This document shows positions 1 through 24,100 of a DNA stretch of 24,325 nucleotides, in pieces. Source of the stretch: Terriglobia bacterium (GTDB taxonomy: Bacteria > Acidobacteriota > Terriglobia > UBA7540); the NCBI GenBank assembly GCA_030040295.1, contig JASHTZ010000549.1, positions 1 through 24,325 on the forward strand, written 5' to 3'. The notes under the pieces are model-generated. The model was not told where the DNA came from, did no database searches, and worked only from the letters and a program-made list of their open reading frames with translations. How positions within the stretch are numbered: the first letter of the stretch is position 1; every line of letters starts with the position of its first letter. The translations under genes and the position numbers were made by a program.

Positions 1-779
1 TGGATGGTTGCGGGAAGACAGATGGAGATGGTCGTGAAGAGGCCGTTGTATCGCGTTGTAGATGCGGTCCCAGTGTTTCCATTGGGGCCAAAATTGACGA
101 AGAGCGGGGCGGTATTAGTGTTGGTCAGGGTTAAGGTGGTGGAAGCGGTGGGCGTGGTCAAAGCGGAATCCGTAGCCGTCACAGCAACGGTGATGGGGTT
201 GGGTAGCGCGGCCGGGGCAGTATAGAGTCCGGAGGAGGAGATTGTCCCGATAGTGGAATTTCCCCCTGCCACGCCATTCACCGACCAGGTGGCGGCAGCA
301 TCCACCGTGCCGTTCAACGTGGCTGAATACTGCACGCTGGTTCCCACCGGAGTGAAAGAATTGACGGGAGCGACGGAGAGCACAGCATTCGTAGGCGGAG
401 GCGTGATGGTTACGGTCGCCGCTCCGAAGGGATAAGTCTCCGACTGGCTGATCGCCTCGACCGTGACAGTGGCCGGCGTGGGCACCGTCGCCGGCGCAGT
501 GTATAATCCCGTCGAGCTGACCGTTCCTACAGTGGAATCACCACCCTGAACGTTATTCACATCCCAGATAATCGTGGTGCTGAAGGACGTGACGACTGTA
601 GCGGTGAATTGTATCGTCCCGCCCGCCTGCACGGAGGCAGAAGTGGGCGCAAGACTCACCACCGGCAAGGCAACGTCGTTCCCGGTGCGGGTAACCGTGC
701 AGGAGGCCAGAAACATTCCAGTAGCCACAGCCGCCAGAAGGCTCGCCCGCGGGACCGCGGAGAGCTTATTTGCCCTCAT
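1..779 (-). CDS. DUF3443-family lipoprotein paralog C (5' part; truncated by window edge): lipoprotein signal, two Big_2-like Ig repeats, start of DUF3443 domain
   Basis: Hand translation from ATG at 779 (RBS GAGGAGG upstream) is open for 259 codons to the edge. It reads MRANKLSAVPRASLLAAVATGMFLASC (lipobox LASC), then two repeats of the type ..W.VN.V.GG.ST.GT.SS.GLYTAPA..P.P..V.V.A, then FVNFGPNG...YNGLFTTISICLP, which matches the N-terminal motif of paralogs B (YLGPTG...NGIFTSVTVCAP) and A (NNITTTVTVCVP). Absent from the supplied ORF track. Confidence 0.85.
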   Translation of the reverse strand, partial: MRANKLSAVPRASLLAAVATGMFLASCTVTRTGNDVALPVVSLAPTSASVQAGGTIQFTATVVTSFSTTIIWDVNNVQGGDSTVGTVSSTGLYTAPATVPTPATVTVEAISQSETYPFGAATVTITPPPTNAVLSVAPVNSFTPVGTSVQYSATLNGTVDAAATWSVNGVAGGNSTIGTISSSGLYTAPAALPNPITVAVTATDSALTTPTASTTLTLTNTNTAPLFVNFGPNGNTGTASTTRYNGLFTTISICLPATI

Positions 780-1239
780 TGCACCTCCTCAGGGGGCTTC
801 GGGACCCCAATCCCCCAAAGAGCTTTCCTGAACTTCCCGAATTCCAATCCGCGCCACCTTTCCTCAGTCACTCTGAATTGATAAGAAGCTTTACCCAACA
901 TGGCAAGACTAAACAAAATAGCACAGACTGCCTGAAGCCATCCAGTGCGGAGAAAGCTGGCTTGCTCCTGAGCGCTGCCGAGGCCCAACCAAAATCACTC
1001 GTCACCTAGATCACGTTCGTTGGCCGCAAAGACTTCGTGGCACGAGCATCTTGCCAGAGATCCTGACATGGCCTGGGAGGCTGTGTCACCATTGGGTTGC
1101 GGCTGCGATCTCTTTGGTAAATCAGGCCGTTGAACTTCGCAAGCTTTCCACCAAAAGGCACTGAACTATGATGCCCCGGTCGCAACCGTGGTTGTAGGTG
1201 TAGGAAAGAGAAGAGGGACGACCAACCGAAACCTGGAAG

Positions 1240-1283
1240 CGGGGACGCAAACCTTGGGGGCCGAAAAATCGGTCCTGCGCCCA
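1240..1283 (-). repeat. Palindromic element just downstream of the DUF3443-B stop (copy 2)
   Basis: Minus strand GGGCGCAGGACCGATTTTTCGGCCCCCAAGGTTTGCGTCCCC: outer stem GGGCGCA/TGCGTCC and inner hairpin CCGA-TTTT-TCGG. Near-identical to 3301-3345. Confidence 0.7.
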
Positions 1284-1300
1284 CGGATATGAACCAAAAC

Positions 1301-2725
1301 CTAAAACGCCCAATAGCCGTTGGGGGACGCCGTGCCCTCTGAGATCCCGACGTAGAGGGGGCGGCCAAAAAAGAATGGCAATCCCAGGTCCCAATAATCC
1401 GTCGCGGGGCTGCACGGAGAGGTTGAACTGGAAATACAGCTTGGGCCGCCCAAGTCATCGAAAGCGGCGTTGCCGGTGCCCACCAGCGACTCGGTGTTGG
1501 CAATGACGAGTGAAACGCTGGTGCTGGTGGAGTTGTAACCTGCCAGCCCCAACGGCAGGAGGTTCAGAGTCGAGGTCGGGCAATAGAAGCCGGCGAAATC
1601 GGAGCTGGTGCAATCCGTGGTGCCCAAGGTTCCGGCGTCAGAAACGTAAAGTGCATTCGACCCGCTATCAATGAAGGTTCCACCACTGTTGCTCGACGTA
1701 TAGGTGATGCTGTTATAAGAGGCTGTGGCGAAATTTCCATCTTCGTCCAGTTCGTAAATAGCGTGCGAACTAATTCCGTTGTTGCTTTCCGTGCTTATCC
1801 CAAAGGTCAGGGTGCCGCTGGCGGTAGCCGCTCCGTTGGCAGCGACGGACGGCAGTGAGATTTGTGTGCCGTTATTGTCCGCAGGAAGCGCCGAAACGAA
1901 ATTCCATACCTGATCCCCTTCGGGAGTGGTTCCGTCCACGATGCCTGCGCCAGTGCTGGCGTCGTAACCCATGTACATGCCGGTGACTTCGTCGGAGCAG
2001 TAGTTGGTGGTGGCCAGCACGCAGTCCTGCGGGAAGTTGCCGATTCCCAGAATGCCGTTGGCCCCCAGAGTGGACACCGTGTCGGCATCGGGTCCGCCTG
2101 AAAACGACTCATCGTTCGAGCCCGGAACAGTGAGGCAGGGATTGTTCGCTGTGCTCGCGCCGTATTGAATGGTTTGGGGAGGAGCGGCGGTGGTGATCAC
2201 CTGAATGGGAATTCCCGTATTGGCCGCAACTCCAGGAAGATTCGAAGACGTTTCCCCACCCACTGTAACCGTAGCCATTTCGACTGGACCCCAAGTATAG
2301 GACAAGTCCCCGTATTCAACGCATTCATACTCAGGTTCGCCGCTGGAAGGGTCCGTAACCTGTTTCAGGCCGAGGTTGCCAACCTGCGAGGCCGAAATGC
2401 CCTGCGCATTCGAGCCCAGCACGCGCAAGCCTACCGAGCCGGTATCCACCAGAACATTGGGGATGGTGGTGCAACTCGTGGTGCTGCCCGGCGCGCAGAC
2501 CGTTACGCTGGTGAAGATGCCATTATCGTAGTTTCCCGTAGGCCCCAGGTAGACATTCACCGTGACCGTGTCTGCCGAACTGCTTGAGGCTGTCGTGCTG
2601 GTGCTGCTGGTTGAGTGCGCGCCGCCGCACGCGGCCAAAACGATCAAGCTCGCGATGAGGCCTAGCAAACGGACGGATATCCCCACAAACTCGCCCTTTC
2701 CAGAAAAGGAGGCAATTTTCCCCAT
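1301..2725 (-). CDS. DUF3443-family lipoprotein paralog B, pepsin-like aspartic protease signature, 474 aa
   Basis: RBS AGGAG; lipobox LAAC33; Ser/Thr linker; motifs VLVDTGSVGLR, NGILGIG, WNFVSALPADNNG (DUF3443 NPV/DNNG-type motif), FIDSGSNALY, DLGLPFFFG; C-terminal NGYWAF. Confidence 0.85.
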   Translation of the reverse strand: MGKIASFSGKGEFVGISVRLLGLIASLIVLAACGGAHSTSSTSTTASSSSADTVTVNVYLGPTGNYDNGIFTSVTVCAPGSTTSCTTIPNVLVDTGSVGLRVLGSNAQGISASQVGNLGLKQVTDPSSGEPEYECVEYGDLSYTWGPVEMATVTVGGETSSNLPGVAANTGIPIQVITTAAPPQTIQYGASTANNPCLTVPGSNDESFSGGPDADTVSTLGANGILGIGNFPQDCVLATTNYCSDEVTGMYMGYDASTGAGIVDGTTPEGDQVWNFVSALPADNNGTQISLPSVAANGAATASGTLTFGISTESNNGISSHAIYELDEDGNFATASYNSITYTSSNSGGTFIDSGSNALYVSDAGTLGTTDCTSSDFAGFYCPTSTLNLLPLGLAGYNSTSTSVSLVIANTESLVGTGNAAFDDLGGPSCISSSTSPCSPATDYWDLGLPFFFGRPLYVGISEGTASPNGYWAF

Positions 2726-2729
2726 GGTT

Positions 2730-2781
2730 CCGACTCCTGAATAATTTTGCGTGCTGATTCCTGAATCCAGACTCCTGCTTT
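2730..2781. repeat. Degenerate 7-bp tandem array (CTGAWTC-like)
   Basis: Units ccgactc ctgaata (2730-2743) and ctgattc ctgaatc cagactc ctgcttt (2754-2781). Confidence 0.6.
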
Positions 2782-3083
2782 TATTCCACCACTTGGGGTT
2801 TGAGAGAGGTGGGAATCAAACTGGGTATCCGGGCGCGTAATGGAAAGCTCATCATTCGCCCGAAGTTTGCGAACTTGAAATCATTACTCTGAATGGTAAC
2901 GGTGCGCCGTGGAATCATTTGGATGCGCTTGCCCTCTGACAAATTGCAATATCCCAGCAACTGATGAAAATTGGGAATGGCGTGTGCTGAAACTCTGAAC
3001 ATAGTCCCGGCCGCGCAGAAGTATTCATTGCCCACGCCACTCCTCTTTCGGTGCAACATGCCTCCGCGAGCTTCGTTCCTCAT
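2781..3083 (-). pseudogene. 5'-truncated, degenerate copy of the DUF2844-like gene at 6246-6689
   Basis: NEYFCAAGTMFRVSAHAIPNFHQLLG...IPRRTVTIQSNDF...FGRMM...PSLIP aligns with the last 86 aa of the intact copy (about 48 identities by manual alignment). It has two 2-residue deletions, has lost both Trp residues, and has no signal peptide or N-terminal third. Confidence 0.75.
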
Positions 3084-3300
3084 TCCTGTTGTTGGACGGC
3101 GGCTCCGACATTAGGGGTTTCCTAGCGAAAGGTAAAGAAAGGTTAATAAAAAACCGGGTCTGGACTTATTGCTCAAATGATGTTTTAAAGTGACTTGTTT
3201 TCTTAGGTATAGGCGCGAGAAGGCGCCTCGCCGCTAGGGAAGGTGGAATCCTGTGCCTGCCACAACAGAATCCCGTCTCAATGAAGTTTGTAAGTGAAAT

Positions 3301-3345
3301 GGGGGCGCAAGCCGTGGGTGGCCGAAAATCGGTCCTGCGCCCCCG
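3301..3345 (-). repeat. Palindromic element just downstream of the DUF3443-A stop (copy 1)
   Basis: Minus strand GGGGGCGCAGGACCGATTTTCGGCCACCCACGGCTTGCGCCCCC: stem GGGGGCGCA/TGCGCCCCC and inner CCGA-TTT-TCGG. Confidence 0.7.
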
Positions 3346-3360
3346 CTTAAAGGGAGAACT

Positions 3361-5919
3361 TTAGAACGCCCAATAGCCGTTGGCGTACGGACCGTTTGGA
3401 TTCGACGGCGTGGAAATGCCGATAAATACGCCATTCGGTTGGCCGAAGAAGAACGGCAGGCCCAGATCGATGTAGTCTGGGCTGACGCCGTCGGAAGGTT
3501 GGCAGTCTGCTGAGCCGCCCTCGCAACTCGGTCCCGCGAAGTCGTTGAACGCGGCGTTATTTGTCGCACTCAGTGTGTCGTAATTGCCGAGCACCAATGA
3601 AAGCGTCGTGGAGGGGTTGTTGGTGCCCGAGGTGGTGTACCCCGTCAGGGTGAGGGGCAGCATGTCGAACGGTTCCGGCGTCGTACCCGTGGTGGGGCAG
3701 TACCAACCGATATCATTTCCGCTCACAATGCAGTCGCCCATGGTCACTCCGTTCGAGGTACCGAGCGTAGTTTCGTCCAGGATGTAAAGCGCGTTCGAGC
3801 CGCTATCGAGGAACGATCCACCGCTGTTCGCGGAGGTGTAAGTTATTCCATTATATTCGGCGGAGTTGAAGTTGCCGTCTGCGTCCAATTCATACACGGT
3901 CTGCGTGGTAATGGCATTATTGGTTTCCGTGCCGATTCCAAACGTCAGCGTGCCCGTAACCGACATCGCCCCGCTGGAAGGCACGGATGGCAGGTTGATG
4001 ATGGATCCGGTGTTGTCCACAGGGAAAGCGGAGACGGGATTCCAAGCCTGGTAATTAAGGGGTGTTGGTTCTACGAGATAATTGACAACTGTAGTGCCAA
4101 CTACTTCGCCATCTTCCTCTTCGTCGACCGTTTCTCCGGCGCTGTCGTACTCAAGATACTGCCCCGTCGTCGTGCTGATGTTTGTGCATTCGTTGGTATT
4201 CGCAATAGCGCAATCCTGAGGGAAGTTGCCGATTCCCAGAATTCCGTTTGACCCCAAGCCAGCGACTGTGTCAGCGTCTATTTGCGTCTCGTCGTCCTCA
4301 TACGTAGGACCTAGACAGGGGTTGTAGTATGCCACATCCTCGTAACCAATACCTTCCGGCGGGGTTTCATCGCTAATAATCTGGATGGGAATACCCCCAT
4401 TTGCTGTTCCGCCTGACGCTGCGGGGACTTGCGAAGCGGTTTCACTGCCCACCGTAACCGTGGCATATGCCATCTGCCCCCAGGTGTAGGACAAATCGCC
4501 GAACAGGACGCACTCATACAGCGGATAGCCGGTGGATGAGTCGGTAATCGTCGGCAGGCCCAGCGAGCCGACCTGCGCGCCCGCCGTTACATTTTCGGCT
4601 CCGGAAGAAAGCAACCGCAGTCCTACCGAGCCCGTATCCACCAGAACGTCGGGAATGGTGGTGCAAGTGGTCGTGTTCGGCACGCAGACCGTCACCGTGG
4701 TGGTGATGTTGTTGACATAGCCGCCCGACTGCCCGAGCAGCCCGAATGAAACGTTGAGGTCTGCGGTGTTGGAGGTCGGTGAGAAACCCGTTCCGGTCAG
4801 ACTGATGTTCTGGGTGCTGCCGGACACGCCGCCGGAATTATCCGTGATGGTCACTGCGGCACTCAGGGTCCCTGCAGCCTCAGGCGTGAAGTTGACATAC
4901 ACGGAGCAATTGGCGCTCGCCGCCAGGCTCTGCCCGCTATAGGTGCATTGATTCGTGCCGGTGGTCAGTGCAAAGTCGGAGCTATCTGTCCCACCGAGCG
5001 CGATGCTCGCAATGGTCAGCGAGGCGGTCGTAGACGTGTTGGTGATGGTCACCGATTGAGTCGCGGCCGTGGAGCCTTCCGTCGTGCTCGCAAAGGTCAG
5101 GCTGATGCTGGAAAGGCCCACGGTGCCGGTCGCGCCCGTTCCAGTCAAACTGATCGTCTGGGGGCTGTTGCCCGCATTGTCACTGACGGTGAGCGTGGCG
5201 GTGGCCGTGCCGCTGGCAGTGGGCGTAAAGGTGACATCGATCGTGCAAGTATTATTTGTAGTTGCTGCAAGTGTTGAACCGCTGGCCGGACAGGTGCTCG
5301 ATTGGATCGCAAAATCTCCGGCATTGGTTCCAGTTATCGACGGGGCGGAGGAAATGGTAAGGGGAACGGTGCCGGTGTTAGTGAGCGTGGCGGCCTGCGC
5401 AGAGCTTGAGCTGCCTATGCCCTGGGTCGAAAAAGTCAGGCCCGCGGCGGGAGTCAGCGTGGCCGTGGGAGCCGCCGCGGCTCCGCTCAGGCTCACCGTC
5501 TGCGTTCCCACATTATCCGCAATGCTCAGGGTCCCAGTCAGTCCCGATCCGGCGCTGGTGGACACGAACGTGACTGTCACCGTGCAGTTCGCTCCCGCGC
5601 TAATTCCCGTGCCGCAGGTGTTGGATTGGGTGAAGTCGCCGGAATTTGTACCGGAAATCGAAAAGCCGGTGAAGGAGAGTGAGGCGGAGCCGGAATCCGT
5701 AACCGTGACCGTCTGAAGAGAGCTGGCGCTGATCGGGGCCGCAAAGGTAAGGCTCGTGGCGCTAAGCGTAACGGCGGCAGTGGGCGTGCTCGTGCTGGAA
5801 CTGCTCGAACCACCGCCGCATCCGGCCATGATCGTCAAACCCGCGATGATGATGCTAACCCGCACCAGCATCATGCAGGAATCCTGCTTACTGGCGAAAG
5901 ACGATACTTTAGCGCGCAT
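3361..5919 (-). CDS. DUF3443-family lipoprotein paralog A with three ASH/choice-of-anchor-D-like Ig domains and a pepsin-like catalytic domain, 852 aa
   Basis: RBS GAGGAG before ATG 5919; lipobox MAGC34; three repeats LTF..........T(V/L/I)T(D/N)......L.......G....DF......C.......(N)C...V.F.......T.TL.(I/V).DN.....Q..SL.G; then VLVDTGSVGLR, NGILGIG, WNPVSAFPVDNTG, FLDSGSNALY, DLGLPFFFG, NGYWAF. Confidence 0.85.
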   Translation of the reverse strand: MRAKVSSFASKQDSCMMLVRVSIIIAGLTIMAGCGGGSSSSSTSTPTAAVTLSATSLTFAAPISASSLQTVTVTDSGSASLSFTGFSISGTNSGDFTQSNTCGTGISAGANCTVTVTFVSTSAGSGLTGTLSIADNVGTQTVSLSGAAAAPTATLTPAAGLTFSTQGIGSSSSAQAATLTNTGTVPLTISSAPSITGTNAGDFAIQSSTCPASGSTLAATTNNTCTIDVTFTPTASGTATATLTVSDNAGNSPQTISLTGTGATGTVGLSSISLTFASTTEGSTAATQSVTITNTSTTASLTIASIALGGTDSSDFALTTGTNQCTYSGQSLAASANCSVYVNFTPEAAGTLSAAVTITDNSGGVSGSTQNISLTGTGFSPTSNTADLNVSFGLLGQSGGYVNNITTTVTVCVPNTTTCTTIPDVLVDTGSVGLRLLSSGAENVTAGAQVGSLGLPTITDSSTGYPLYECVLFGDLSYTWGQMAYATVTVGSETASQVPAASGGTANGGIPIQIISDETPPEGIGYEDVAYYNPCLGPTYEDDETQIDADTVAGLGSNGILGIGNFPQDCAIANTNECTNISTTTGQYLEYDSAGETVDEEEDGEVVGTTVVNYLVEPTPLNYQAWNPVSAFPVDNTGSIINLPSVPSSGAMSVTGTLTFGIGTETNNAITTQTVYELDADGNFNSAEYNGITYTSANSGGSFLDSGSNALYILDETTLGTSNGVTMGDCIVSGNDIGWYCPTTGTTPEPFDMLPLTLTGYTTSGTNNPSTTLSLVLGNYDTLSATNNAAFNDFAGPSCEGGSADCQPSDGVSPDYIDLGLPFFFGQPNGVFIGISTPSNPNGPYANGYWAF

Positions 5920-5950
5920 AATTCACACTCCTCACCCACAAACCGGGGGC

Positions 5951-5972
5951 CTGAATTCCTGACTCCTGAATT
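5951..5972. repeat. Degenerate 7-bp tandem array upstream of DUF3443-A
   Basis: ctgaattc ctgactc ctgaatt, with weaker units continuing at about 6002-6050 (ttgactc tgactac). Same unit family as 2730-2781. Confidence 0.55.
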
Positions 5973-6245
5973 TTCTTTCCTCAATCCTAAGTTTCTTGGT
6001 CCTGAACTACGAGATCCTAAAATTTGACTCTGACTACCGAATGCTGCTGAAAATCTGCAACCGTTGCAGTTGCAATCCCTCGCCAGGAGGCTTTGGGCCG
6101 CAGGGCGAGGGCCACCCCTTACCTGTTATGTCGGCGGCCTCCCATCACCGGTCTGCGCTTGGAGAGCGCCGCTACAACCTGGGCGTGGGACGACCGCGAG
6201 GACCGCCCCATTTGCCGAACAGTTCCTCAATCCCGAATCCCGCCC

Positions 6246-6689
6246 CTATTGCACAGTGGCTGGCGTGAGGTTGGAGGGGATCAGGCTGGGCGCCCAGGCG
6301 CGCCCGTGAAAATTCATCATTCGCCCGAAGCTGGTCATGACAAAGTCATTCCCCTGAATGGTAACCGCGCGGCGCGGAATGACATTCGTGCGCTGGCCCT
6401 GCTGGAAATTGGTGAAATAATTCCCCAGCAATTGATGGAGGTTGGGAATGGAATGGCCTTTCCAGGAAACTCCGAACACCGTCCCCGATGGCGACACGTA
6501 TTCGTTGATCATGCTGCCGTCCTGCATCGTGATCTGGTGGAGATTGAAGCCCACCTTGGCAACCAACGCGTGCTGGCCGTTGAAAGCCTGCGCGTCTGAA
6601 TCGACGGAGGCGACGTTGCTGCCCAGCGCGGCCCAAGCGGGCACGCTGGCTATCGCGAGCGTAAACAAGATTGCGATAACTCTCTTCAT
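6246..6689 (-). CDS. DUF2844-family secreted protein, 147 aa
   Basis: Sec signal MKRVIAILFTLAIASVPAWA|ALG; motifs ALG, INEYVSPSGTVFGVSWKG..PNLHQLLGNYF, SFGRM..F.GRAW.PSL.P. Sits directly upstream of DUF3443, the pairing known from Burkholderiales. Confidence 0.8.
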   Translation of the reverse strand: MKRVIAILFTLAIASVPAWAALGSNVASVDSDAQAFNGQHALVAKVGFNLHQITMQDGSMINEYVSPSGTVFGVSWKGHSIPNLHQLLGNYFTNFQQGQRTNVIPRRAVTIQGNDFVMTSFGRMMNFHGRAWAPSLIPSNLTPATVQ

Positions 6690-7075
6690 AAATTTTCACC
6701 CTGCCTTTCCCGGAAAAGGTTTCCCCAGATTCAACTCGTAAGAAGCTATTTTGCCACCAAAGGGTTTGTTGCTGCTTGTTAAATAATTGCAAAATCCCTA
6801 GTTAGCTCGATGGGGCTTGCGTATTGTCCCACCGGCCATCACTTCGCAAGCCTTTGACAACCAGGTGCTGTAAACCTATGCCCTTCAAGAGCCTCCAACA
6901 AAATCGAACCGATGAGGGCACAGGGGTTCACGAAAATGTTCTTCGCTCTACTCCCCTATTAACACGAATCCATAGCGGAAGTTTCCGTCTAATGGGCAAG
7001 GGGTGGGAAGGTTCTTGAGGGGGATCAGTTCAAAAAGAAAAAGGGAGCGCGGATGCATGCGAGGTCAAAACGGTC

Positions 7076-7417
7076 TTACGCCGGGTTCATTCGCAGGTCA
7101 CGCAGTTCATTCATCAGTAGATTCACAGCCGCTTCCAGGCTTTTCAGCTTGGCTTCGGCATCCTGGAGTCTGTTTTCGCGGGCCAATTCCTCCACCGCGC
7201 GAGCGCTTTCATGCGCCAGGGGAGCGGCAATGTCCCCCGCGGCACCCTTCAGCGCGTGCGCGGCGCGCTCCAGCTTCGCTGCGTTTTGGTCCTGAACGGC
7301 TTGCCGCACATCGTCGAGAAGTTTGGGGCATGAATCGAGGAACATCTCAATGATCTCTTTCGCCAATTGCTCGTCACCCTCCAAGCGGTCGAGAAAACAG
7401 GCTTTGTCAAATATCAT
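7076..7417 (-). CDS. Stand-alone Hpt (histidine phosphotransfer) domain protein
   Basis: FD...LDRLEGDEQLAKEIIEMFL...LERAAHALKGAAGDIAA: canonical H-x-L-K-G Hpt motif in an all-helical 113-aa protein; GGAGG upstream. Confidence 0.9.
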   Translation of the reverse strand: MIFDKACFLDRLEGDEQLAKEIIEMFLDSCPKLLDDVRQAVQDQNAAKLERAAHALKGAAGDIAAPLAHESARAVEELARENRLQDAEAKLKSLEAAVNLLMNELRDLRMNPA

Positions 7418-7443
7418 GAGAGAAGTCTACCTCCGGGAAAAGA

Positions 7444-7478
7444 AGTCGTGAGTCGTCAGTTGTCAGTTTTCGGTCGTC
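7444..7478. repeat. Degenerate 7-bp tandem array (AGTYGTC-like), five units
   Basis: agtcgtg agtcgtc agttgtc agttttc ggtcgtc. Confidence 0.65.
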
Positions 7479-7651
7479 CGGGTTTCGATTCAGATCGAAC
7501 AACAAGCCTTCATCTCTTCTTTCGGCACGTTGCGCGAAAACTTGATGTGAGAATTTTTGGTTCTCAGTTCTGACCAAAGGAGATTCCTGGGCAGAGCCTG
7601 CGGCGCCTCAGGATGACAGTTTTGAGAGGTTTTTCCACAACCCTTGGGAAT

Positions 7652-8179
7652 TCAACGGGACGATTGAAAGCCGTTGAGGGGGGAGGCCGTGATAAAAGTA
7701 GGCGGCTTCAAGAGGTAATTGCGCACGGAGCCGCCAACGCCCACTCCGATGTGAACAGCCGAAGTCCAGCGCTCCAGGCTATGGTGGCCGCTGCGATGGA
7801 ATAGGTACGAAACTCCAATGGAGGCCGCCGTGCCGGCCAGCTCGATTCCCACAAATAGCGGCCGATCGTCGACGATGCGGTCCGTGAGCAGCCACTCATC
7901 ATTTCCCTGATCGCGCAGATGGCGGGTGGAAGCGTAATCCATCATGCGCGCGCCGGCCACACCCGCGAAAAGCCCCAAATTTTCGGCATCCCAGAATTTG
8001 TGGGCCGGCGGTTGGAATTTAGCGGCCGGCCTCGGCATCGCCGAGGCAGAGGCGGGCGCAATTGCTGGAGGATCCTCCTGTGCGCACAGACCTCCGCAAC
8101 CGCCAAGCAGCAATGTTGTCAATAAAAACGGATAAAGTTTCGACACCTGCGGGCATTTTATACAAACACGCCCGTGCAT
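7652..8179 (-). CDS. Hypothetical exported/membrane protein (start uncertain)
   Basis: Hydrophobic N-terminus with possible lipobox LLLGGC, Pro/Ala linker, then HKFWD..NL.LFAGVAGAR..DY.ST and hydrophobic segments ending RNY. Co-oriented, 18 bp after the upstream gene. Confidence 0.7.
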   Translation of the reverse strand: MHGRVCIKCPQVSKLYPFLLTTLLLGGCGGLCAQEDPPAIAPASASAMPRPAAKFQPPAHKFWDAENLGLFAGVAGARMMDYASTRHLRDQGNDEWLLTDRIVDDRPLFVGIELAGTAASIGVSYLFHRSGHHSLERWTSAVHIGVGVGGSVRNYLLKPPTFITASPLNGFQSSR

Positions 8180-8197
8180 GCCAGATATTTAGAAGTG

Positions 8198-8794
8198 CTA
8201 GCTCTCCGGCAGCGGCGGGCAGCCGGGGAATTCGGCCAGATAGGTGTTGCCGATATATTGGAGGTATTTAATTCCGATCTCAGGAGTAACAAACCCGTCG
8301 GTGGTGAAGTCGCGCAGCGAGGCGAAAAAATTTACACCCTGCCCGAGGGCAGGATCCTTGCGGGCGTTGTCGCGATAGGCGATGAGGTCCAACACCGCCT
8401 TCTGATCGGCGGCTGAGCAATCAAGGTAGACCTTGCCGTAGCGATCGCTGCACAGTGAATCGAGCCAGGCGATGCCGCCGCCCAGGGTCAATTGATAATC
8501 CTCATTCTCACTGGTTAGAAGGTCGATGAATTCCGGCGCGCCGGCTTCAATCGCCCCACCGGTTTCCGAGTCGGGCGGAATAATCGTCTGGCAGAGTGAG
8601 CGGAGAGTCTGGTAGGCGTGAGGGGTGAAAAACTTGGGCTTGTAGGCGCCATCGGGCGACTGCGCCCGCTCTTCGCTCACCATGCGGTGCGCAAGCTCCG
8701 CCGCCTGAAGGGGAATCAGCCGCAGCGACGAGCCGACTGTAACTCCCATGGCTAGATTTTTCAAAACATCGCGACGAGATATATTCGTAGGCAT
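8198..8794 (-). CDS. Gluconate 2-dehydrogenase subunit 3 family protein (Tat-exported small subunit)
   Basis: Tat motif SRRDVLK; PKFFT...TL..L...IIP......GA..AG..EFID; FF..LR..T..GF.T.EIG...L.Y.GN; RBS AAGGAG; follows the GMC gene. Confidence 0.88.
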   Translation of the reverse strand: MPTNISRRDVLKNLAMGVTVGSSLRLIPLQAAELAHRMVSEERAQSPDGAYKPKFFTPHAYQTLRSLCQTIIPPDSETGGAIEAGAPEFIDLLTSENEDYQLTLGGGIAWLDSLCSDRYGKVYLDCSAADQKAVLDLIAYRDNARKDPALGQGVNFFASLRDFTTDGFVTPEIGIKYLQYIGNTYLAEFPGCPPLPES

Positions 8795-8823
8795 GAAAAA
8801 TGCTCCTTCATATGTCGTCGGTG

Positions 8824-8870
8824 GTAGCGGTGCTCTATGAGCGCCGTCGGCGGTCGCAGACCGCCGCTAC
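8824..8870. repeat. GTAG-type REP doublet (inverted pair)
   Basis: GTAG-CGGTGCTC-TAT-GAGCGCCG, then CGGCGGTC-GCA-GACCGCCG-CTAC. Each half is a GTAG tetranucleotide plus a short hairpin, the structure of RAYT-associated REPs. Confidence 0.75.
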
Positions 8871-8884
8871 AATGGCCACTGTCC

Positions 8885-10591
8885 TTAAACATTCCCCTTC
8901 TTTGCCTCGTCCAACAGATACTCCGACGCCCGCCAGGACAGCGCCAAAATCGAGAGCGTGGGATTTTTGTCCGGATCGGTCACAAAGCACGCGGCGTCGG
9001 TAACGAAGAGATTCTTTACATCATGCGCCTGGCAGAAGGAATTGAGGGCGGAGGTTTGCGGATCGTTCCCCATGCGCACCACGCCCGATTCGTGGATAAT
9101 CTCGCCTCCCGTCCGTATTCCGTAGGGAAAATCCCCGGTGGTCTGGGTCTCAGTCAGATAGGTTCCGCCCACCGACTCGACGATGGCGCGGAAGGTTTCC
9201 TGCATGTCCCGCGCCATTTTAATTTCGTTCTCCCCCCACTCGAAATGGAAGCGCAGCACGGGAATTCCCCACTCATCGACGGCGCTGGGATCGATTTCGC
9301 AATAAGAGTTGGGATTGGAAATCATTTCGCCGCGGCCCGCCAGATGAATGAATGCGCCATATTTCTGCTTGCAGCGCTGCTTGAGTTCCAACCCGTAACC
9401 CTCGTACTTGTGATTGACGCCGTTGAACATTCCCACGCCCGGCATGTGCCGCCCGCCGCCGAACTCAATGTGGTAGCCCCGCAGAAATTCGTTCTTCCGG
9501 TCAAACTTCCACCAGGGTATATACATGTGCATTCCGCCTGAGCCGTCGTGATTGTGAGGCGGCATTTTTTCCAGCACGGGGATATATCCCGAACCGTTGC
9601 TGCCCACCGAGTCCATCAGGTAGCGCCCCACCACGCCGGAAGAATTCGCCAGACCCTGCGGGAACAATCGCGATTTGGAATTCAGCAGCAGGCGCGCGGA
9701 TTCGCAGGAGCTGCCCGCCACCACCACTGCCTTGGCGCGCACCTGCTGGTCGGTTCGCGTCGCCTTGTCGATGTAATTCACGCCGGCAGCCTTGCCTTGG
9801 TCGTTCACCACAATTTCACGCGCCATGGCGCCGGTAATCAGGGTGAACCGCCCCGTAGCCTGGGCGGGAGGAATCATGACCTGGCTGGAGCTGAAGTTGG
9901 AAGCCGTCTTGCACCCGCGCCCGCACTGGTCGCAATAGTGGCAGGGCGGGCGGCCGTTCAGTGGTTGCGTTATGATGGCCTTGCGCGAGGGGACGCAAAT
10001 AATTCCCAGCTTGTCACACGCGCGCTTCACCAGAAGGTCCGTACAGCGCGGCTTGGGAGGAGGCTGAAAAATTCCGTCCGGGGCGCTGGGAATTCCCTCC
10101 TTCGTACCGAAGACGCCGATGTAGCGATCCACTTTATCGTAATAGGGCTCGAGATCCTGATAGGTGATGGGCCAGTCGTCGCCCCGGCCGTCGTGGGAGC
10201 GGACGCGGAAGTCCACCTCCGCAAATCGCAGCGCGATGCGGCCCCAGTGATTGGTGCGGCCGCCCACGATGCGCGAGCGGAACCACATGAATTTTGACCC
10301 CGGCGCCTTGGTGTAAGGTTCGCCCTCGATGGTCCAAGAGCCGTTGGGGGCCATGAACTCCGTGCGGCCGAAATCCTTGTAGCCGGCGCCGCCGATGCCC
10401 GCCCCGCGATGCGCCAGCTGGTAAGGCCAAACGTGCTCCTTGTAATCCGTGTCAGGATGCAGCATGGGTCCGGCTTCGAGCATCACCACGTTCAGCCCGC
10501 CCTCGCTCAGCACCTTGGCCGCCGCGCCGCCTGCCGCTCCCGAGCCGATGATGCAAACGTCATAAACTTTTCCCGTGCGTATGATTTCCAT
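8885..10591 (-). CDS. GMC-family FAD oxidoreductase large subunit
   Basis: YDVCIIGSGAAGG FAD-binding motif; GGRTNHWG; CHYCDQCGRGC Cys motif; ESARLLLNS; HESGVVRMG.DP..S.LN; NPTLSILAL. Start placed at ATG 10591 (MEIIRTG) rather than the ORF-track start 10627. Confidence 0.93.
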   Translation of the reverse strand: MEIIRTGKVYDVCIIGSGAAGGAAAKVLSEGGLNVVMLEAGPMLHPDTDYKEHVWPYQLAHRGAGIGGAGYKDFGRTEFMAPNGSWTIEGEPYTKAPGSKFMWFRSRIVGGRTNHWGRIALRFAEVDFRVRSHDGRGDDWPITYQDLEPYYDKVDRYIGVFGTKEGIPSAPDGIFQPPPKPRCTDLLVKRACDKLGIICVPSRKAIITQPLNGRPPCHYCDQCGRGCKTASNFSSSQVMIPPAQATGRFTLITGAMAREIVVNDQGKAAGVNYIDKATRTDQQVRAKAVVVAGSSCESARLLLNSKSRLFPQGLANSSGVVGRYLMDSVGSNGSGYIPVLEKMPPHNHDGSGGMHMYIPWWKFDRKNEFLRGYHIEFGGGRHMPGVGMFNGVNHKYEGYGLELKQRCKQKYGAFIHLAGRGEMISNPNSYCEIDPSAVDEWGIPVLRFHFEWGENEIKMARDMQETFRAIVESVGGTYLTETQTTGDFPYGIRTGGEIIHESGVVRMGNDPQTSALNSFCQAHDVKNLFVTDAACFVTDPDKNPTLSILALSWRASEYLLDEAKKGNV

Positions 10592-10639
10592 AATGAATTC
10601 CTGCTCCCTCTGTAACCCCACAGCCAAACAAGAACTCTA

Positions 10640-16578: not shown

Positions 16579-16637
16579 GTAGCGCGTGTCCCCACCCGCG
16601 ATTCGTGATTCAACGCGGGTGAGGACACCCGCGCTAC
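16579..16637. repeat. GTAG-type REP doublet overlapping the stop codon of the 739-aa gene
   Basis: GTAG-CGCGTGTCCCCACCCGCG ... CGCGGGTGAGGACACCCGCG-CTAC, with flanks extending the inverted repeat (gctGTAG/CTACagc). Confidence 0.75.
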
Positions 16638-18853
16638 AGCACCTCAAGCTTTCCCGTTGATGCGTCCTTCGCAACCTCAAGCGGTTTCCACACCACGGTA
16701 TTGCGGCCGGCAGTATCAACGGTCGAGACTCGCAACCGATACTTTCCGGGATGGGTAATATTGAATTTCAGGCGAACGTCCCAACCGGCGTCTCGCCCGG
16801 CGTGGGTGGGCTTTTCAGCGGTTAGAAACTGATGGTTCTCAGGCTCCGGGCCGTAAAGCTCGCCCATCACCATGTTGTTGTAAACGATTCCGTCGCGTGC
16901 GTGGCCGACCGTGTAGTAGACGGGCGACGTTGTCTCGACCACGTGTGCGAGCGCGGAAATCTCCAGGCCGCCTTCTGACGCGGCTTCCGCCAACGTAACG
17001 CTCAATTCCGGCGGAGGACCCGGCGCGCGCGGCGGGACTCGGGGTCCATTCAAAACCTCATGCTTCCCTTCCGACTCCACTTCCACTTTCCCGTCTTCGC
17101 GAATACGCACAATTTCGTGGTAGCCTCCCAAATCAATCCCGGGCAAGTTCCAAAGCGAATCGAAGCTTTCGCCAAGCTTGATGCTGCGCTCGACCTCCGT
17201 GAAAAAGTTGCTCATCACTGTACGGTACTTCATTCCACGCTGGTTCTCCCGCTCCAGGTTGAGTTCATGCAGCCCCCAGAGAGGTCCTTTACCCATATAA
17301 ACATGGCCAAGCGTGTACCCGACTGGTAAAAGGAGAGCCTTCGTGGCATTTCGTGTGAGGGTATTCGGGTCCCGCCGTGGATGTGTTTCGGCATAAGCAT
17401 GCAGATGCCGAGCAAGTTCCAGAATCTCCCCGTGCGGAACCGCGGCCAAGCCTCCATTGTCCCAAAAGAAAAACCGCGTTGCGCCCAAATCGTACGCGTG
17501 CGTCAGCCAGAAGGGCGAATCCTCCGGCTGCACCTGGCCGTAAATGCTCACGCCCCAGGTCTTGTGCGTCGCGCGCGCAGCGCCGCGCAGAAATCCGTAC
17601 AGAATGTCGGTGAACGCGAGGGGATCGTCGGGTGGAATTTGCACTCCGTACGTCATATCCATTTCCGGCAGGGTGCGCCGTGTGCCGATGTGGCCGGGGG
17701 GCTCGAAAACAAAGGCTTCAGGGACCTGCGAGTCCTGCGATAGTTCGTAGTCCGCGGTGGCCACCATGGTTTCCCAAGAGAACAGATTTTCCTGAGCGAA
17801 ATGCATGTCCCCAAGCTTCACGTCCGGCCTTGCCGCGAGTTCGCGCATCAGCTCGTAGGGCGCACCCTTGAGGGCATCGGCATAATGAGTGCGGAAGGCT
17901 TCGAATGCCGCCTGCGGATTGATGCTGCGTCGAAACGCAACGTCCTTCTGAAGGCGCGGGCGCAGGACATAATCGCGCGTACCGACTGCAGGCTCGTCCA
18001 GAAAGATCGTGGGGCCAAGATACTGGCTGCGATAAAGCGACTCGGGAAATTTCAGCACCGCGCCGCCGCCCCAGTAGTAAAGGCCCAGGTCATCCGCCCA
18101 CGGCGCCTGTTCAGCATTCACTTGCACGCAGTTGATTCCCGCCTTCGCCATCTCGCGGTAATCATCCTGCGTCAGCTTAACGTATTCGTAGTCGGAGCCG
18201 TCGTAGCGGCGGGTTTCGTCCTTTTGACGGAGATTGCTCTCCTGCCCGACCAGGACGTCCGGGCGAAGCAGAACCACTTTCGCGTCGGGAGGAGCGGCGG
18301 CCGCGCCCTGGCTGAGCGACTGGCGCGTGTAAACCAAACCGAGGTAGCGTACCTCTTCCGGGAATGGCTCGGCTGCTGAGGATTCGCGCGTCGATCTCGG
18401 AAACAGGAATTCCCAGCCGCCCATGGCGGGAAGTTCTGCCCGACCCGTGAGCGCGTTGCGATATTCCCGCGCCAGAGATGAACCTTCCTGAAAAATGTAC
18501 CGAAATGTTGCAGCCCGCGCGGCCTTCAGCGTGAGGGGTGGATAGCCGGCGCTCAGCAAATAAAATCTGAATCGCTCGCCATCCGCTTTCGTGGCGCTCA
18601 GGGAAATCCACTGGCGGCCGCCCGCTGCTGATTTTTCAACCTCGCCCAATGCCAAAGTAAAGGCTTCAACGATTGAGCCCGCCGCAGTGCCCTCCTTTAG
18701 ATAATAAGAAGCTGTCTCCCCGGGCGGGCCGATAATTCCAGGGCTCATTGCGGACGTCGCCGGAAAATCCGCGGGGTGCTGGGCTTGAACTCCAAAAAAG
18801 CTCAGCAGGACAGCGCCGACGAATGGAATAATCCTCATGCTAGTCGTAAACAT
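16634..18853 (-). CDS. Large secreted hypothetical protein, possible glycoside-hydrolase-like TIM barrel
   Basis: Signal peptide ..FFGVQA|Q; long clean ORF; EMAKAGINCVQV, TIFLDEP, AYDLGATRFFFWD, then ALLLP.GY and a C-terminal beta-sandwich (GKYRLRVSTVD.AGR). Start is 18853 or 18838. Confidence 0.75.
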   Translation of the reverse strand: MFTTSMRIIPFVGAVLLSFFGVQAQHPADFPATSAMSPGIIGPPGETASYYLKEGTAAGSIVEAFTLALGEVEKSAAGGRQWISLSATKADGERFRFYLLSAGYPPLTLKAARAATFRYIFQEGSSLAREYRNALTGRAELPAMGGWEFLFPRSTRESSAAEPFPEEVRYLGLVYTRQSLSQGAAAAPPDAKVVLLRPDVLVGQESNLRQKDETRRYDGSDYEYVKLTQDDYREMAKAGINCVQVNAEQAPWADDLGLYYWGGGAVLKFPESLYRSQYLGPTIFLDEPAVGTRDYVLRPRLQKDVAFRRSINPQAAFEAFRTHYADALKGAPYELMRELAARPDVKLGDMHFAQENLFSWETMVATADYELSQDSQVPEAFVFEPPGHIGTRRTLPEMDMTYGVQIPPDDPLAFTDILYGFLRGAARATHKTWGVSIYGQVQPEDSPFWLTHAYDLGATRFFFWDNGGLAAVPHGEILELARHLHAYAETHPRRDPNTLTRNATKALLLPVGYTLGHVYMGKGPLWGLHELNLERENQRGMKYRTVMSNFFTEVERSIKLGESFDSLWNLPGIDLGGYHEIVRIREDGKVEVESEGKHEVLNGPRVPPRAPGPPPELSVTLAEAASEGGLEISALAHVVETTSPVYYTVGHARDGIVYNNMVMGELYGPEPENHQFLTAEKPTHAGRDAGWDVRLKFNITHPGKYRLRVSTVDTAGRNTVVWKPLEVAKDASTGKLEVL

Positions 18854-19056
18854 CCCTCAGGCAGCGAGTCCGCTTTGGCGCGGACGCCCATCCCCTGAAA
18901 GCCCGAGGATGGACTGGCCATGCTCTTGAGCGCGGTGCGGGAGAGTATATACCGAAGCCACGGCATTGCTTCTCGCACGTGAGTTTGTTTGCCAGACATT
19001 TTTTCCCCTTCGGTGGGGATTTGGGCTATAAATAGGTCAAAGCGCAGGAGGTAACC

Positions 19057-20187
19057 ATGAGTTTGACACGTCGCGGGTGTTTGAAAGCCATCAGCAAAGG
19101 TGTTGCGGCAGGGCTTGTGACCGGAGGGGGCGGAATGGCGTGGGGAGCGCGCACGGATTCGAAGACCGATCCGACCAAACTCGGCATGCCGGGACTTTAC
19201 CCCGGGCGCGTTGTTTCGGTGGAGAATCCCTCTGTGCTGGTCTCCGGCCACTATCAGGCCGAGCAGGTCCAGAAGATGATGCGGCGCGGCATGATGGAAC
19301 TGACCGGCGCGGATGGCTGGGCGGACGCCTGGCGGCAATTCTTCGAGCCCGGCGATGTGGTGGGCATCAAGGTGAACCCGGTGGGCCAGCCTCTGGTGAT
19401 CTCCGACGCGACAGTGTTGCACGAAATCGTCGCAGGCCTCGAGGTGGCGGGTGTGAAGCGCCAGGACATTGTGGTCTACGACCGCTACCGGAAGCAATTC
19501 TACAGCGGCGGATTTGACAAGTGGCTTCCTGAGGGCGTTCGCAATTCCTGGGCCGCGGAAGACGTGGACAACGTGCAGCAGAACATCTCGGGCTACGACC
19601 CCGACCATTACATGGAGATGGCCTTGACGCTGCCGGGCTACAGCCTGGATGACCCCGCGGCGCGGCGCTCCTATGCGGCGCTGTTCATCACCAAGCAGGT
19701 AAACAAGCTCATCAATCTTCCCGTGCTGAAGGATCACCAATCGGCGGGCGTGACCCTGTGCCTGAAAAATCTCTCGCACGGCCTGGTGAACAACGTCAAC
19801 CGCAGCCACTCAAGCCCAAGCCTGAACGTTTGTAATGAGTTCATTCCCACTGCCGTGTCGATACCGATCATCCGCAGTAAAGTGGTGCTGAACATTCTGG
19901 ACGGCGTGAAAGGCCTTTACAACGGCGGTCCGGGCGCGCGGCCGGAATTCGTGTGGGAACACAACACCCTGTACTTTTCCACCGACCCTGTGGCTACGGA
20001 CCACATCGGCTGGGAAGTGATTGACGCCAAGCGCCAGGCGATGGGAATGAAGATTCTGGTGGAATCGCAGCCGGACAAAATCAGCACCTTCGTCCACCGC
20101 CAGCCCGAGCACGTGGAAATCGCCGGCGCGCTGGGCCTGGGCGTGTGGGACCGCAAGAAAATCGATTTACGCGAATTCAAAGTTTGA
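19057..20187 (+). CDS. Tat-exported DUF362-domain protein
   Basis: RBS AGGAGG; TRRGCLK Tat motif; PGDVVGIKVN; KLINLPVLKDH..AGVTLCLKNL.HG; STDPVA.D. Confidence 0.85.
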   Translation: MSLTRRGCLKAISKGVAAGLVTGGGGMAWGARTDSKTDPTKLGMPGLYPGRVVSVENPSVLVSGHYQAEQVQKMMRRGMMELTGADGWADAWRQFFEPGDVVGIKVNPVGQPLVISDATVLHEIVAGLEVAGVKRQDIVVYDRYRKQFYSGGFDKWLPEGVRNSWAAEDVDNVQQNISGYDPDHYMEMALTLPGYSLDDPAARRSYAALFITKQVNKLINLPVLKDHQSAGVTLCLKNLSHGLVNNVNRSHSSPSLNVCNEFIPTAVSIPIIRSKVVLNILDGVKGLYNGGPGARPEFVWEHNTLYFSTDPVATDHIGWEVIDAKRQAMGMKILVESQPDKISTFVHRQPEHVEIAGALGLGVWDRKKIDLREFKV

Positions 20188-21862: not shown

Positions 21863-24100
21863 TTGAAGAATTTTCTGATTCTCGCGATTGTGGCAGCCCT
21901 CTCAAGCGTACCCGCAATGGCCCGTGCCAGCGATCCCCCGAACTCGATCGTTGATCTTTCTCAATGCGCGTGGCAGACCTCAGTGGGCGCGCAGTTCACA
22001 ACGGGCGGTAATGAATTTGATCTTGAGGTCAAGTCCCTTCCTGAAGCCGCACCGCGCGCCGCGGTATGCTGGGCCCCCTTGCCGGGAAGCGGAGCCATGG
22101 AAGTTCGTGGCCTGCACCACGGCGCCGTGACCGAGCAAGGATGGACGTTTGCGTTTGAGCGAAGCACCGGCGAGCGGATTGACCTCTACCGCGGCAGCCA
22201 GGAACGCGAGTTCGCCTTCCCCGTCCCGACCGCCTGGGAGCACGACCGGCGAATTGGAATCGTCATCGGCATTCCGGGTGATAATCCCGGTTACCTGCAC
22301 CTCCGCGACTTGCGCTTGCAACCCGCCGAGAATATTTCCTTCTCTGCTCCCGTGCTGATCTCTCCTGCGGAAGGTCAGGATGTTACCGCACCGGCTGCGG
22401 ATTTTCTGTGGTCGTGCCCGCATCCCGGGCAAGTGGCGGGGTACGATTTGGAATGGGAGCGCGAAGGGGGTGAACCGCAAAAGGCGCGCATCGCGGCATT
22501 TTTCTCAAGCGATGCGCAGGGTTACTGGCCCAGCGACTGGCTTTCTCCAGGGAAATACTCCTGGCGAGTGCGCGCGCTGAATCTGGCTGGCAGTTTCGGA
22601 CCATGGTCCGAGATGAAATACTTTATTGTCCGCGAGGAAGAACCCTCGCGACCGTTGGACATTGTTCCCAGCACAAGCCGACCCGTCACTATTTTGAATT
22701 TGCCCTACGATGATGTGAAAGGCGCATGGTCGCTGGTCCCTGCGGACCTTCGTTCCAGCTTTTTGTTTCGCACCGGCGGCGCGCGGCCCTACATTGCCAA
22801 AATCCTGGCTGCCGCCCAGGCGGCGGGCGCGCCGATTGCGCTGCAAATGAACGGTCCGCACAACATCATCGCCGGTCGGTGGGACCGCGTTCCCCTGGCG
22901 ATGATCGAGAAATGGGCGCACGAATATTCTGCACTCAAGGCGTTTTACATCTGCGAGCAGCAGGTGCAGGGCGGCGTCAACAATCCGGAAGTCGCCAGCT
23001 ACCTGAAACACCTAATTGCTTTGGCCTCGGAGATGGGGCGGCCGGTTTTCTGGGCCGACGCCAATTGGGGAAGGAACATCTGGCTGGAAGTGGAAGCCCA
23101 CCCGGATTTCCGGAATTTCATGAAGGAACATTACGGCTACGTTTATCCTTTGTGGAAGATGAACGGCGGTGACGCGCCTTACCTTGCACCCGCCGGGCTC
23201 CTGGGACTCTGGCTCAGCCATACCGTGGCGGGCTGGGGCGCACAGCCGGAGAGCTACTACTGGACCGAAGCCGGATTCACCACCTTGGGAAATCAGCTCG
23301 ACTACAAGCAAGGCATCCGCACCGACGCTCCGCCCGTCATCTTTCAGGAACTGGCGCTGCTCGGAGCTTCGGCCGGCGCGCAGATTTATTCCTTTGAGCC
23401 CGCGAATGACTATTGGGACCCAAACCCGCCGCACGCCGACCTGGTAAACCTCATCTGGCCGTTCTTCCGAATGTTGGATGACTCGGTGATTCCCACTTTG
23501 CCGGAGGTGCAAGCGGCGACAATGGATGAACGGACCGTGGATTCGGCAGATCTGGTTTTTCGCAGCGAATACACCCCATCCATCAAGCAACTCTTTACCC
23601 GAACATTGGGAATCGGATATCCCTTTGAAATGGTTCCGGAATCGGGAAGCTGCTATTGGATTCCTTTTCTTCCACCCGCCAGCAACACTTCCGCAAGTAA
23701 ATTATCCTGCCTGCCTCCCGAACCCGGCAAGGCGGCTGTATTTAAGGCGGGAAAATCGATCTTTGTCTTCAATAGCCGCGTGAACTGGAATGAAGACCAA
23801 TCATTTTCCCTGAATCTTGCCGGCGCGCACGTATCCGGCGAACTGGGAACAAACGGCTGGGTAACGGTTCGCGAAGAAAATAACCGTCAGGCACGGCTGT
23901 GGTTCTTCGCGCGCAAAGGCTCGCATCTGGTGATGGATTTTGACCACCCGGTGGCGTGGCGGGCACTCGATGATGCGGATTCTTACCAGCCTTCTGACGA
24001 TTCGCAAGGGGAGGCGAAGGGCTGGTCAGGCGCGGTCCGGCACGTCGACTTTGCTGCTGACCAACAAACCTGGGATGTCAGTCTCCGGTTGGCCCCGTGA
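21863..24100 (+). CDS. Secreted GH98-like glycoside hydrolase with N-terminal beta-sandwich and FN3-like domains
   Basis: GAGGAG 8 nt before TTG; signal peptide; FN3-like PVLISPA...W......Y...GKYSWRVRA.N.AG..GPWSE; catalytic-like FYICEQ, GWGAQPESYYW, GAQIYSFEP; GH98C-like YWIPFLP and FVFNSRVN.NEDQ. Confidence 0.7.
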   Translation: MKNFLILAIVAALSSVPAMARASDPPNSIVDLSQCAWQTSVGAQFTTGGNEFDLEVKSLPEAAPRAAVCWAPLPGSGAMEVRGLHHGAVTEQGWTFAFERSTGERIDLYRGSQEREFAFPVPTAWEHDRRIGIVIGIPGDNPGYLHLRDLRLQPAENISFSAPVLISPAEGQDVTAPAADFLWSCPHPGQVAGYDLEWEREGGEPQKARIAAFFSSDAQGYWPSDWLSPGKYSWRVRALNLAGSFGPWSEMKYFIVREEEPSRPLDIVPSTSRPVTILNLPYDDVKGAWSLVPADLRSSFLFRTGGARPYIAKILAAAQAAGAPIALQMNGPHNIIAGRWDRVPLAMIEKWAHEYSALKAFYICEQQVQGGVNNPEVASYLKHLIALASEMGRPVFWADANWGRNIWLEVEAHPDFRNFMKEHYGYVYPLWKMNGGDAPYLAPAGLLGLWLSHTVAGWGAQPESYYWTEAGFTTLGNQLDYKQGIRTDAPPVIFQELALLGASAGAQIYSFEPANDYWDPNPPHADLVNLIWPFFRMLDDSVIPTLPEVQAATMDERTVDSADLVFRSEYTPSIKQLFTRTLGIGYPFEMVPESGSCYWIPFLPPASNTSASKLSCLPPEPGKAAVFKAGKSIFVFNSRVNWNEDQSFSLNLAGAHVSGELGTNGWVTVREENNRQARLWFFARKGSHLVMDFDHPVAWRALDDADSYQPSDDSQGEAKGWSGAVRHVDFAADQQTWDVSLRLAP

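Follow-up and report, generated by a model that had tools for sequence, protein, structure and literature searches.

The 24,325-bp stretch analyzed here (the window) is the entire contig C227 of an 82%-complete metagenome-assembled genome (MAG) of a Terriglobia bacterium. At its left end the minus strand carries five open reading frames (ORFs) in the same direction, drawn from two protein families: an intact DUF2844 gene, DUF3443-A, a truncated DUF2844 gene, DUF3443-B, and DUF3443-C. On balance, we favor the view that A and B are acid-adapted, lipid-anchored aspartic peptidases and that their basic DUF2844 partner acts on them in trans in the manner of a prosegment or an inhibitor. The region would then be the form taken in this lineage by a genus-wide array of tandem two-gene cassettes, in which a small secreted basic DUF2844 protein precedes a lipoprotein that is predicted to adopt the pepsin fold over its C-terminal ~430 residues. 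The original prediction had described five co-oriented minus-strand units, and the ORF list, Pfam hmmscan, and NCBIfam agree with it, C being identified through an 84%-identical ortholog; translations and domain searches likewise confirm its statement that the three DUF3443 proteins have lipoboxes and a common domain-start motif and differ in their stalks.

The two complete DUF3443 proteins differ in size and in the way their C-terminal domain is mounted. DUF3443-A (positions 3361 to 5919, 852 amino acids) has the lipobox IMAG/C34, read from the translation, with the codon of Cys34 at 5818 to 5820; a stalk of three choice-of-anchor-D immunoglobulin (Ig)-like domains (about 4795 to 5772) assigned by NCBIfam, which Pfam matches as Cep192_D4/ASH Ig-like domains; and a pepsin-fold domain delimited by Pfam and NCBIfam (3364 to 4776). 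DUF3443-B (1301 to 2725, 474 amino acids) has the lipobox VLAA/C33, and only a Ser/Thr linker precedes its pepsin-fold domain. In both proteins the catalytic domain begins right after the stalk (A) or the linker (B), and an N-terminal prosegment is absent. The family assignments, which the original prediction had proposed to check by HMMER, lie above the Pfam gathering cutoffs (25 bits for DUF3443, PF11925; 22.4 bits for DUF2844, PF11005): A scores 219 bits over residues 382 to 852, B scores 264 bits, and the two DUF2844 copies score 117 and 25.6 bits.

The fold of DUF3443 can be assigned with high confidence, from modeling, as two-lobed and pepsin-like. An AlphaFold2 model of B built with 50 homologs reached a predicted local distance difference test (pLDDT) score of 78.7 and a predicted template modeling score of 0.81, and its sole long disordered part comprises the signal peptide and the linker. 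A Foldseek search of the PDB with this model returned 402 matches at E ≤ 0.001 with a probability of 1.00, the best being endothiapepsin (1.9e-11); among the matches listed (the best 50 of the 402), all 50 are A1 peptidases, and a search of the Swiss-Prot models gave the same picture of the pepsin family. In VIA-align superpositions on A1 peptidases, 280 to 296 residues were aligned with Z scores of 22 to 23 and root mean square deviations of 3.2 to 3.7 Å; residues 50 to 474 of the model align with nearly the whole target chain, so that both lobes are covered, and the sequence identity in these structural alignments is 13 to 22%.

Each lobe of A and B contains one D-[TS]-G-[ST] motif. The N-lobe motif is D428-TGS in A (4627 to 4638), in a column that is invariant in the alignment, and D94-TGS in B (2435 to 2446); the C-lobe motif is D705-SGS in A (3796 to 3807) and D353-SGS in B (1658 to 1669). 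The codons of all four were checked, and the motifs were identified from sequence, not by superposition on Asp32 and Asp215 of pepsin. Across the 50 homologs, D94, T95, S97, G99, G355, and eight cysteines (B numbering) are invariant and D353 is kept in at least 90%, and both canonical motifs are present in 80 of 102 unique DUF3443 domains. The mature proteins are also strikingly poor in basic residues: A has no Lys, one Arg, and no His among 819 residues, and B has one Lys, two Arg, and two His among 442. Pepsin is similarly almost devoid of basic residues. From fold, motifs, and composition together, we regard A and B as likely to be catalytically active aspartic peptidases. Because DUF3443 resembles the A1 peptidases in fold and motifs and not by sequence matching, we class it as a pepsin-fold family rather than as a member of A1; it probably works as A1 peptidases do.

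The intact DUF2844 gene (6246 to 6689) encodes 147 amino acids that match PF11005 over profile positions 1 to 128, with a Sec signal peptide ending in AWA/A and a basic mature part (isoelectric point, 9.5); its ratio of nonsynonymous to synonymous substitution rates (dN/dS) against an ortholog is 0.13. DUF2844 had been said to be the usual neighbor of DUF3443, and a neighborhood survey of 80 loci outside this genome, drawn from several orders of Acidobacteriota, from Paraburkholderia, and from one Verrucomicrobiia MAG, bears this out: a full DUF2844 gene on the same strand precedes 71 of the 84 DUF3443 genes with enough upstream DNA, and the stop codon of the former very often abuts or overlaps the start codon of the latter. 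In the window, the two are separated by a 326-bp spacer (5920 to 6245), compared with 237 bp in one related genome and with abutting or overlapping codons in most family members; neither a DUF2844 or other ORF remnant nor an Rfam family was found in this spacer.

An AlphaFold2 model of DUF2844 (pLDDT, 81) consists of eight strands and two helices arranged as two similar halves. No confident structural relative of this fold was found: the best Foldseek match in the PDB had an E value of 0.017, to BLIP-like/DUF2874 periplasmic proteins, and the best VIA-align Z score was 6.2, so that the BLIP-like resemblance of the model is a lead only; among the AlphaFold DB clusters, the model matched DUF2844 itself alone. 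When the catalytic domain of A was modeled together with mature DUF2844, the complex was predicted with an interaction prediction score from aligned errors (ipSAE) of 0.91 in three runs, and the best of three controls scored 0.00. On A, the predicted interface comprises domain residues 54 and 56 to 58 (DTGS), 97 to 103, and 331 and 333 to 335 (DSGS), of which residues 97 to 103 form the strand preceding a conserved S-Y-T-W-G, the expected flap. On DUF2844, it comprises residues 77 to 86, 95 to 111, and 119 to 130, including the nearly invariant Q96, Q97, G98, R106, and R107. As the interface touches both catalytic motifs and the flap, the model places DUF2844 in the active-site cleft of A; this predicted position and the opposite charges of the two proteins fit a trans-acting inhibitor or chaperone that resembles a prosegment.

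The second DUF2844 gene of the array (2781 to 3083, 100 codons) is a probable pseudogene. The original prediction had called it degenerate, as its low score (25.6 bits), its match to profile positions 42 to 128 only, and its substitution pattern corroborate. Its signal peptide and ~45 residues at the start of the family profile are missing; a remnant of its N terminus was found in no reading frame, and searches for hidden DUF2844 remnants in the DNA upstream of it, ahead of C, and in the DUF2844-A spacer were likewise negative. Compared pairwise across three genomes, the decayed gene has dN/dS values of 0.78, 0.74, and 0.82, and the adjacent B has 0.18 to 0.24 at similar dS. These values show that the decayed DUF2844 drifts nearly neutrally while B is under purifying selection. 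Conserved residues have been lost differently in the three decayed copies: the P-R-R segment is deleted in one and has become P-Q-R in another. The frame is nevertheless open in all three genomes, and the decayed copy could for that reason conceivably keep a residual role.

Gene trees place this decay in the history of the array. In the DUF2844 tree, the truncated copy pairs with its ortholog from a related genome (support 100/93), and this pair is sister to the intact copy of the window (100/95), with branch lengths of 0.46 and 0.56 for the truncated copy and its ortholog and 0.10 for the intact DUF2844. A maximum-likelihood tree of the catalytic domains contains three well-supported clades that match array position (clade I, first cassette; clade II, second; clade III, third); A and B both fall in clade I, within a 7-member clade (100/98), the orthologs of C fall in clade II, and the DUF2844 and DUF3443 trees mirror each other. 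Because A and B share a clade and the truncated and intact DUF2844 copies group as sisters, a whole type-I cassette was duplicated in this lineage, and its second partner gene then decayed. The trees thus indicate that only A and B are recent duplicates and that the array is not the product of a single local burst. The proposal that a cassette was duplicated and diversified in place therefore holds for A and B, as the mirrored trees argue, and fails for C, an old clade-II paralog. Syntenic orthologs of A, B, and C are each present in related genomes; phylogeny and synteny together point to local duplication for A/B and to genus-wide paralogs otherwise, and contradict independent acquisition.

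An enzyme that stays constrained beside a decaying partner raises the possibility that B has become independent of any DUF2844, that the intact copy serves A only, and that the way B matures has changed. We consider this a tentative alternative for B. It would account for purifying selection on B during the decay of its own partner, B has lost the Ig stalk as well, and identity between A and B is barely higher at the predicted interface (63%) than elsewhere (55%), a gap too small to decide whether the partner is shared. Nothing direct speaks against it; A and B are close paralogs within the well-supported 7-member clade, whose members have similar partners.

DUF3443-C (3 to 779) is cut by the contig edge. 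Its N-terminal 259 residues comprise the lipobox FLAS/C27, two Big_2-like repeats, and ~35 residues of the catalytic domain, which carry the same domain-start motif as A and B; C gives no DUF3443 hidden Markov model match of its own, because only these ~35 domain residues precede the end of the contig. The 259 residues are 84% identical to the N terminus of a 638-amino-acid protein of a related MAG (P0225) that scores 288 bits for DUF3443 and in which DTGS is kept and N-S-R-L stands at the DSGS site. Both C orthologs (in genomes G024 and G009) have this combination of an intact DTGS and N-S-R-[LS], and the next relative (G002) has N-S-S-S. Since its orthologs lack the second catalytic Asp, C is probably no working protease; of the battery of proteases originally proposed, A and B remain as candidates by fold and motifs, and C probably drops out. 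The three-member C clade (99/93) also has no upstream DUF2844, unlike most of clade II. Joint loss of the second Asp and of the partner is one evolutionary event, an anecdote rather than a statistic, and the pattern fits a dead enzyme that needs no plug. C is a type-II paralog; it belongs to an older, genus-wide second-cassette clade and has positional orthologs across the genus.

The original prediction had suggested extending the contig leftward in search of more copies; the remainder of C is absent from the assembly, and unitigs extend 199 to 288 bases beyond position 1. Contig C265 of the same MAG was considered as the missing end of C and ruled out, its DUF3443 fragment being only 40% identical to the C ortholog. 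This fragment (G000:C265:1-834, L003) keeps DSGS and is 84% identical to a separate paralog of ~1,200 amino acids without a partner gene; it represents a fourth DUF3443 paralog with its N terminus cut. The orthologs of this fourth paralog (L041:56-3685 and L037:182-3688) are ~1,170 to 1,210 amino acids long, with Cep192_D4, Big_2, and CARDB-like Ig domains, and DUF2844 is absent upstream of them.

Other members of the family depart from the canonical pattern in their own ways. In the clade-III DUF3443 proteins (L007-L024, arrays of relatives), the first motif is always V-Q-V-D-T-G-S-S and the second is degenerate (DSSE, DTAQ, DSGQ, or DSGG), and these genes still have an intact upstream DUF2844. 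At two loci from other genomes of the genus, L025 (G013:C6) and L026 (G002:C33), whole array copies of DUF3443 and DUF2844 are split into several frames with internal stops, through decay or MAG assembly error. A minus-strand ORF of the present MAG (G000:C147:627-1364) resembles the Big_2-like stalk of the C ortholog, with 36% identity over residues 14 to 250, and the match includes no DUF3443 domain.

Taken as a mechanism, the preferred reading of A, B, and DUF2844 runs as follows. A and B would be acid-active aspartic endopeptidases, tethered to a cell-envelope membrane, that break down protein in acidic peat. DUF2844 would do in trans what the basic prosegment does in pepsinogen, or what a dedicated periplasmic inhibitor does, keeping the enzyme latent or aiding its folding until release, perhaps at low pH. 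B would borrow the partner of A or need none, and C, with its catalysis impaired, would serve in binding or regulation. A stronger form of this idea treats DUF2844 and DUF3443 as a pepsin-type zymogen split over two genes, the plug being released by low pH, with the arrays recording duplication, loss of the plug gene, and an Asp-to-Asn pseudo-protease that no longer needs a plug; we regard it as possible, though doubtful.

Several results weigh against the peptidase-and-partner reading. On the array proteins, neither the Asp (PF00026) and TAXi models nor other aspartic-peptidase models of Pfam gave a match at E ≤ 0.1, and a sequence search of the PDB with the DUF3443 family profile, carried to E ≤ 10, returned no such enzyme, so that the link to pepsin depends on predicted structure and short motifs. 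The motifs depart from the canonical form in 22 of the 102 domains, so catalysis is not universal in DUF3443. C, as far as it is present in the window, stops before either catalytic motif. No inhibitor fold is recognizable in the DUF2844 model, and its complex with A is a prediction that expresses model confidence and not a measurement; 58 of 80 solved complexes and 2 of 110 mismatched pairs attained that ipSAE level, a calibration that is only rough here because our own alignments were used. A scan of the array yielded no assignable promoter or terminator, no RNA runs containing the array stretch were found, and a literature search found neither a paper naming DUF3443, DUF2844, or PF11925 nor biochemistry of any member. 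Exposure of the array lipoproteins at the cell surface is a guess.

Two further explanations share part of this evidence. DUF2844 might assist folding or sorting as a chaperone, form a stable subunit without inhibitory function, or be the substrate or pro-protein of the enzyme. Tight gene coupling and predicted binding would suit any stoichiometric partner, and DUF2844 has no recognized inhibitor fold. We nevertheless think such a role unlikely, since the predicted interface spans both catalytic motifs and the flap, the opposite charges mimic those of pepsinogen, and the partner gene is absent exactly where the second Asp is lost (in one clade, by one event). Less probable still, and in our view quite unlikely, is that DUF3443 proteins are non-catalytic binding proteins that reuse the pepsin fold, with DUF2844 as ligand or coreceptor. 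Such reuse is familiar from the plant xylanase inhibitor TAXI-I and the pregnancy-associated glycoproteins, and it would be in keeping with the lack of a match to the Pfam Asp model, with the altered motifs of those 22 domains, and with whole array paralog clades that carry DTSS, DTDS, or N-S-R. However, the first Asp never varies, most members (A and B among them) retain the second, and the near-absence of Lys, Arg, and His suits an acid-active enzyme. The variant motifs (DTSS, DTDS, DYGS, DSSA, DTAQ, and others) cluster mostly in extra paralogs, as expected of enzymes turning into pseudo-enzymes.

That the paralogs came from independent horizontal transfers, or that similar genes were joined into a chimeric array during assembly, is hardly credible: the family is patchy (DUF3443 occurs in 22 of the 24 genomes sampled from this genus, neither DUF3443 nor DUF2844 was found in 16 genomes sampled from the same order or class outside it, and the family recurs in Paraburkholderia and a Verrucomicrobiia MAG), but A, B, and C have syntenic orthologs in related genomes, paralog clades track array position across the genus, and the junctions are crossed by unitigs from four runs. 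The unitigs are separate for each junction and come from four runs of a single peat-metagenome study; they cover 574 to 1589, 2204 to 3135, 2754 to 3438, and 5858 to 7000 with 0 to 1 differences, a support that is not independent because the runs may include the sample behind the window assembly. On this evidence, the array and its truncated DUF2844 look unlike assembly artifacts.

DUF2844 is present in 20 of the 24 genomes of the genus, where arrays typically comprise two or three cassettes in tandem. Among named relatives, the nearest are "Terriglobia bacterium" MAGs recovered from peat and forest soil, and the array stretch itself is present in peat-metagenome runs. When 1.84 billion cluster representatives were searched with a profile, DUF3443 was found in 2,650 clusters at E ≤ 0.001 and in 2,216 at E ≤ 1e-10, clusters being counted at 50% identity.

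Elsewhere in the window, positions 7076 to 10627 hold genes for a GMC oxidoreductase, a gluconate 2-dehydrogenase subunit 3-like protein, a 163- to 175-amino-acid protein without a Pfam match, and an Hpt-domain protein, after which come DUF2844 and A; this upstream order is conserved in a related genome (L107). In a related MAG, an additional ~1.1 kb separates B from C and contains a 232-amino-acid ORF without a Pfam match (L006:2759-3457); this DNA is absent from the window, where the gap spans 780 to 1300. A 745-amino-acid ORF on the plus strand (21863 to 24100) gives no more than a subthreshold GH98 middle-domain match (PF08306; E value, 4.3e-4; 20.1 bits against a cutoff of 23), and two minus-strand ORFs (16634 to 18853, 739 amino acids; 18835 to 19809, 324 amino acids) match no Pfam family at E ≤ 0.001.

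The new elements of this analysis are the history of the array, a decayed partner gene beside a constrained enzyme, a probable lineage of dead paralogs, and the predicted binding of DUF2844 in the cleft. The locus documents, as far as trees and substitution rates can tell, duplication and subsequent decay in an unstudied cassette of enzyme plus partner, and it offers natural experiments in the form of an enzyme that outlives the decay of its partner and a paralog without catalytic Asp and partner. To our knowledge, proteases of the pepsin type are considered essentially eukaryotic. Bacterial pepsin homologs that have been described are few and are predicted to be intracellular (PMC2761423). 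DUF3443 would add an exported, lipid-anchored pepsin-fold family with its own partner gene, abundant in peat and soil Acidobacteriota and also present in culturable Paraburkholderia. If active, its members would be candidates for a role as acid proteases in acquiring nitrogen in acidic soils and would represent a new mode of control of aspartic proteases in trans.

Compared with the eukaryotic A1 peptidases (endothiapepsin, rhizopuspepsin, polyporopepsin, pepsin, renin, and BACE), DUF3443 shares the two-lobed fold, as the Z scores of 22 to 23 attest, and a D-[TS]-G-[ST] motif in each lobe that is followed by a hydrophobic-hydrophobic-Gly element such as ILG; pepsin and the DUF3443 proteins of the array are also alike in their extreme acidity. 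Unlike these enzymes, DUF3443 proteins have no similarity to them detectable by HMMER, are lipoproteins, have Ig-like stalks, lack a prosegment, and come with a separate partner gene. The prosegment of pepsinogen is a basic polypeptide that fills the cleft of an acidic aspartic peptidase. DUF2844 resembles it in being basic and, by prediction, in occupying the cleft, and by analogy the opposite charges suggest release at low pH; it differs in being a separate folded, secreted protein of 127 residues instead of an N-terminal extension. Small β-rich proteins that bind the active site and are made with or for one protease are known in AprI/Inh (for serralysins), the staphostatins, and PI-3 of Ascaris, and periplasmic protease inhibitors protect the cell that produces them. 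No relationship in fold or sequence to AprI/Inh, the staphostatins, or PI-3 was found for DUF2844, and here the partner gene comes first, usually with overlapping stop and start codons. Among bacteria, the nearest counterparts are shewasin A/D and their relatives, which like DUF3443 are two-lobed aspartic peptidase homologs; according to Rawlings and Bateman (2009, PMC2761423), they are true A1 members by sequence, have no signal peptide, and are predicted to be intracellular and active at neutral pH. By comparison, the DUF3443 proteins are exported, lipid-anchored, and acidic, are accompanied by a partner gene, and form a separate family of ~2,650 clusters.

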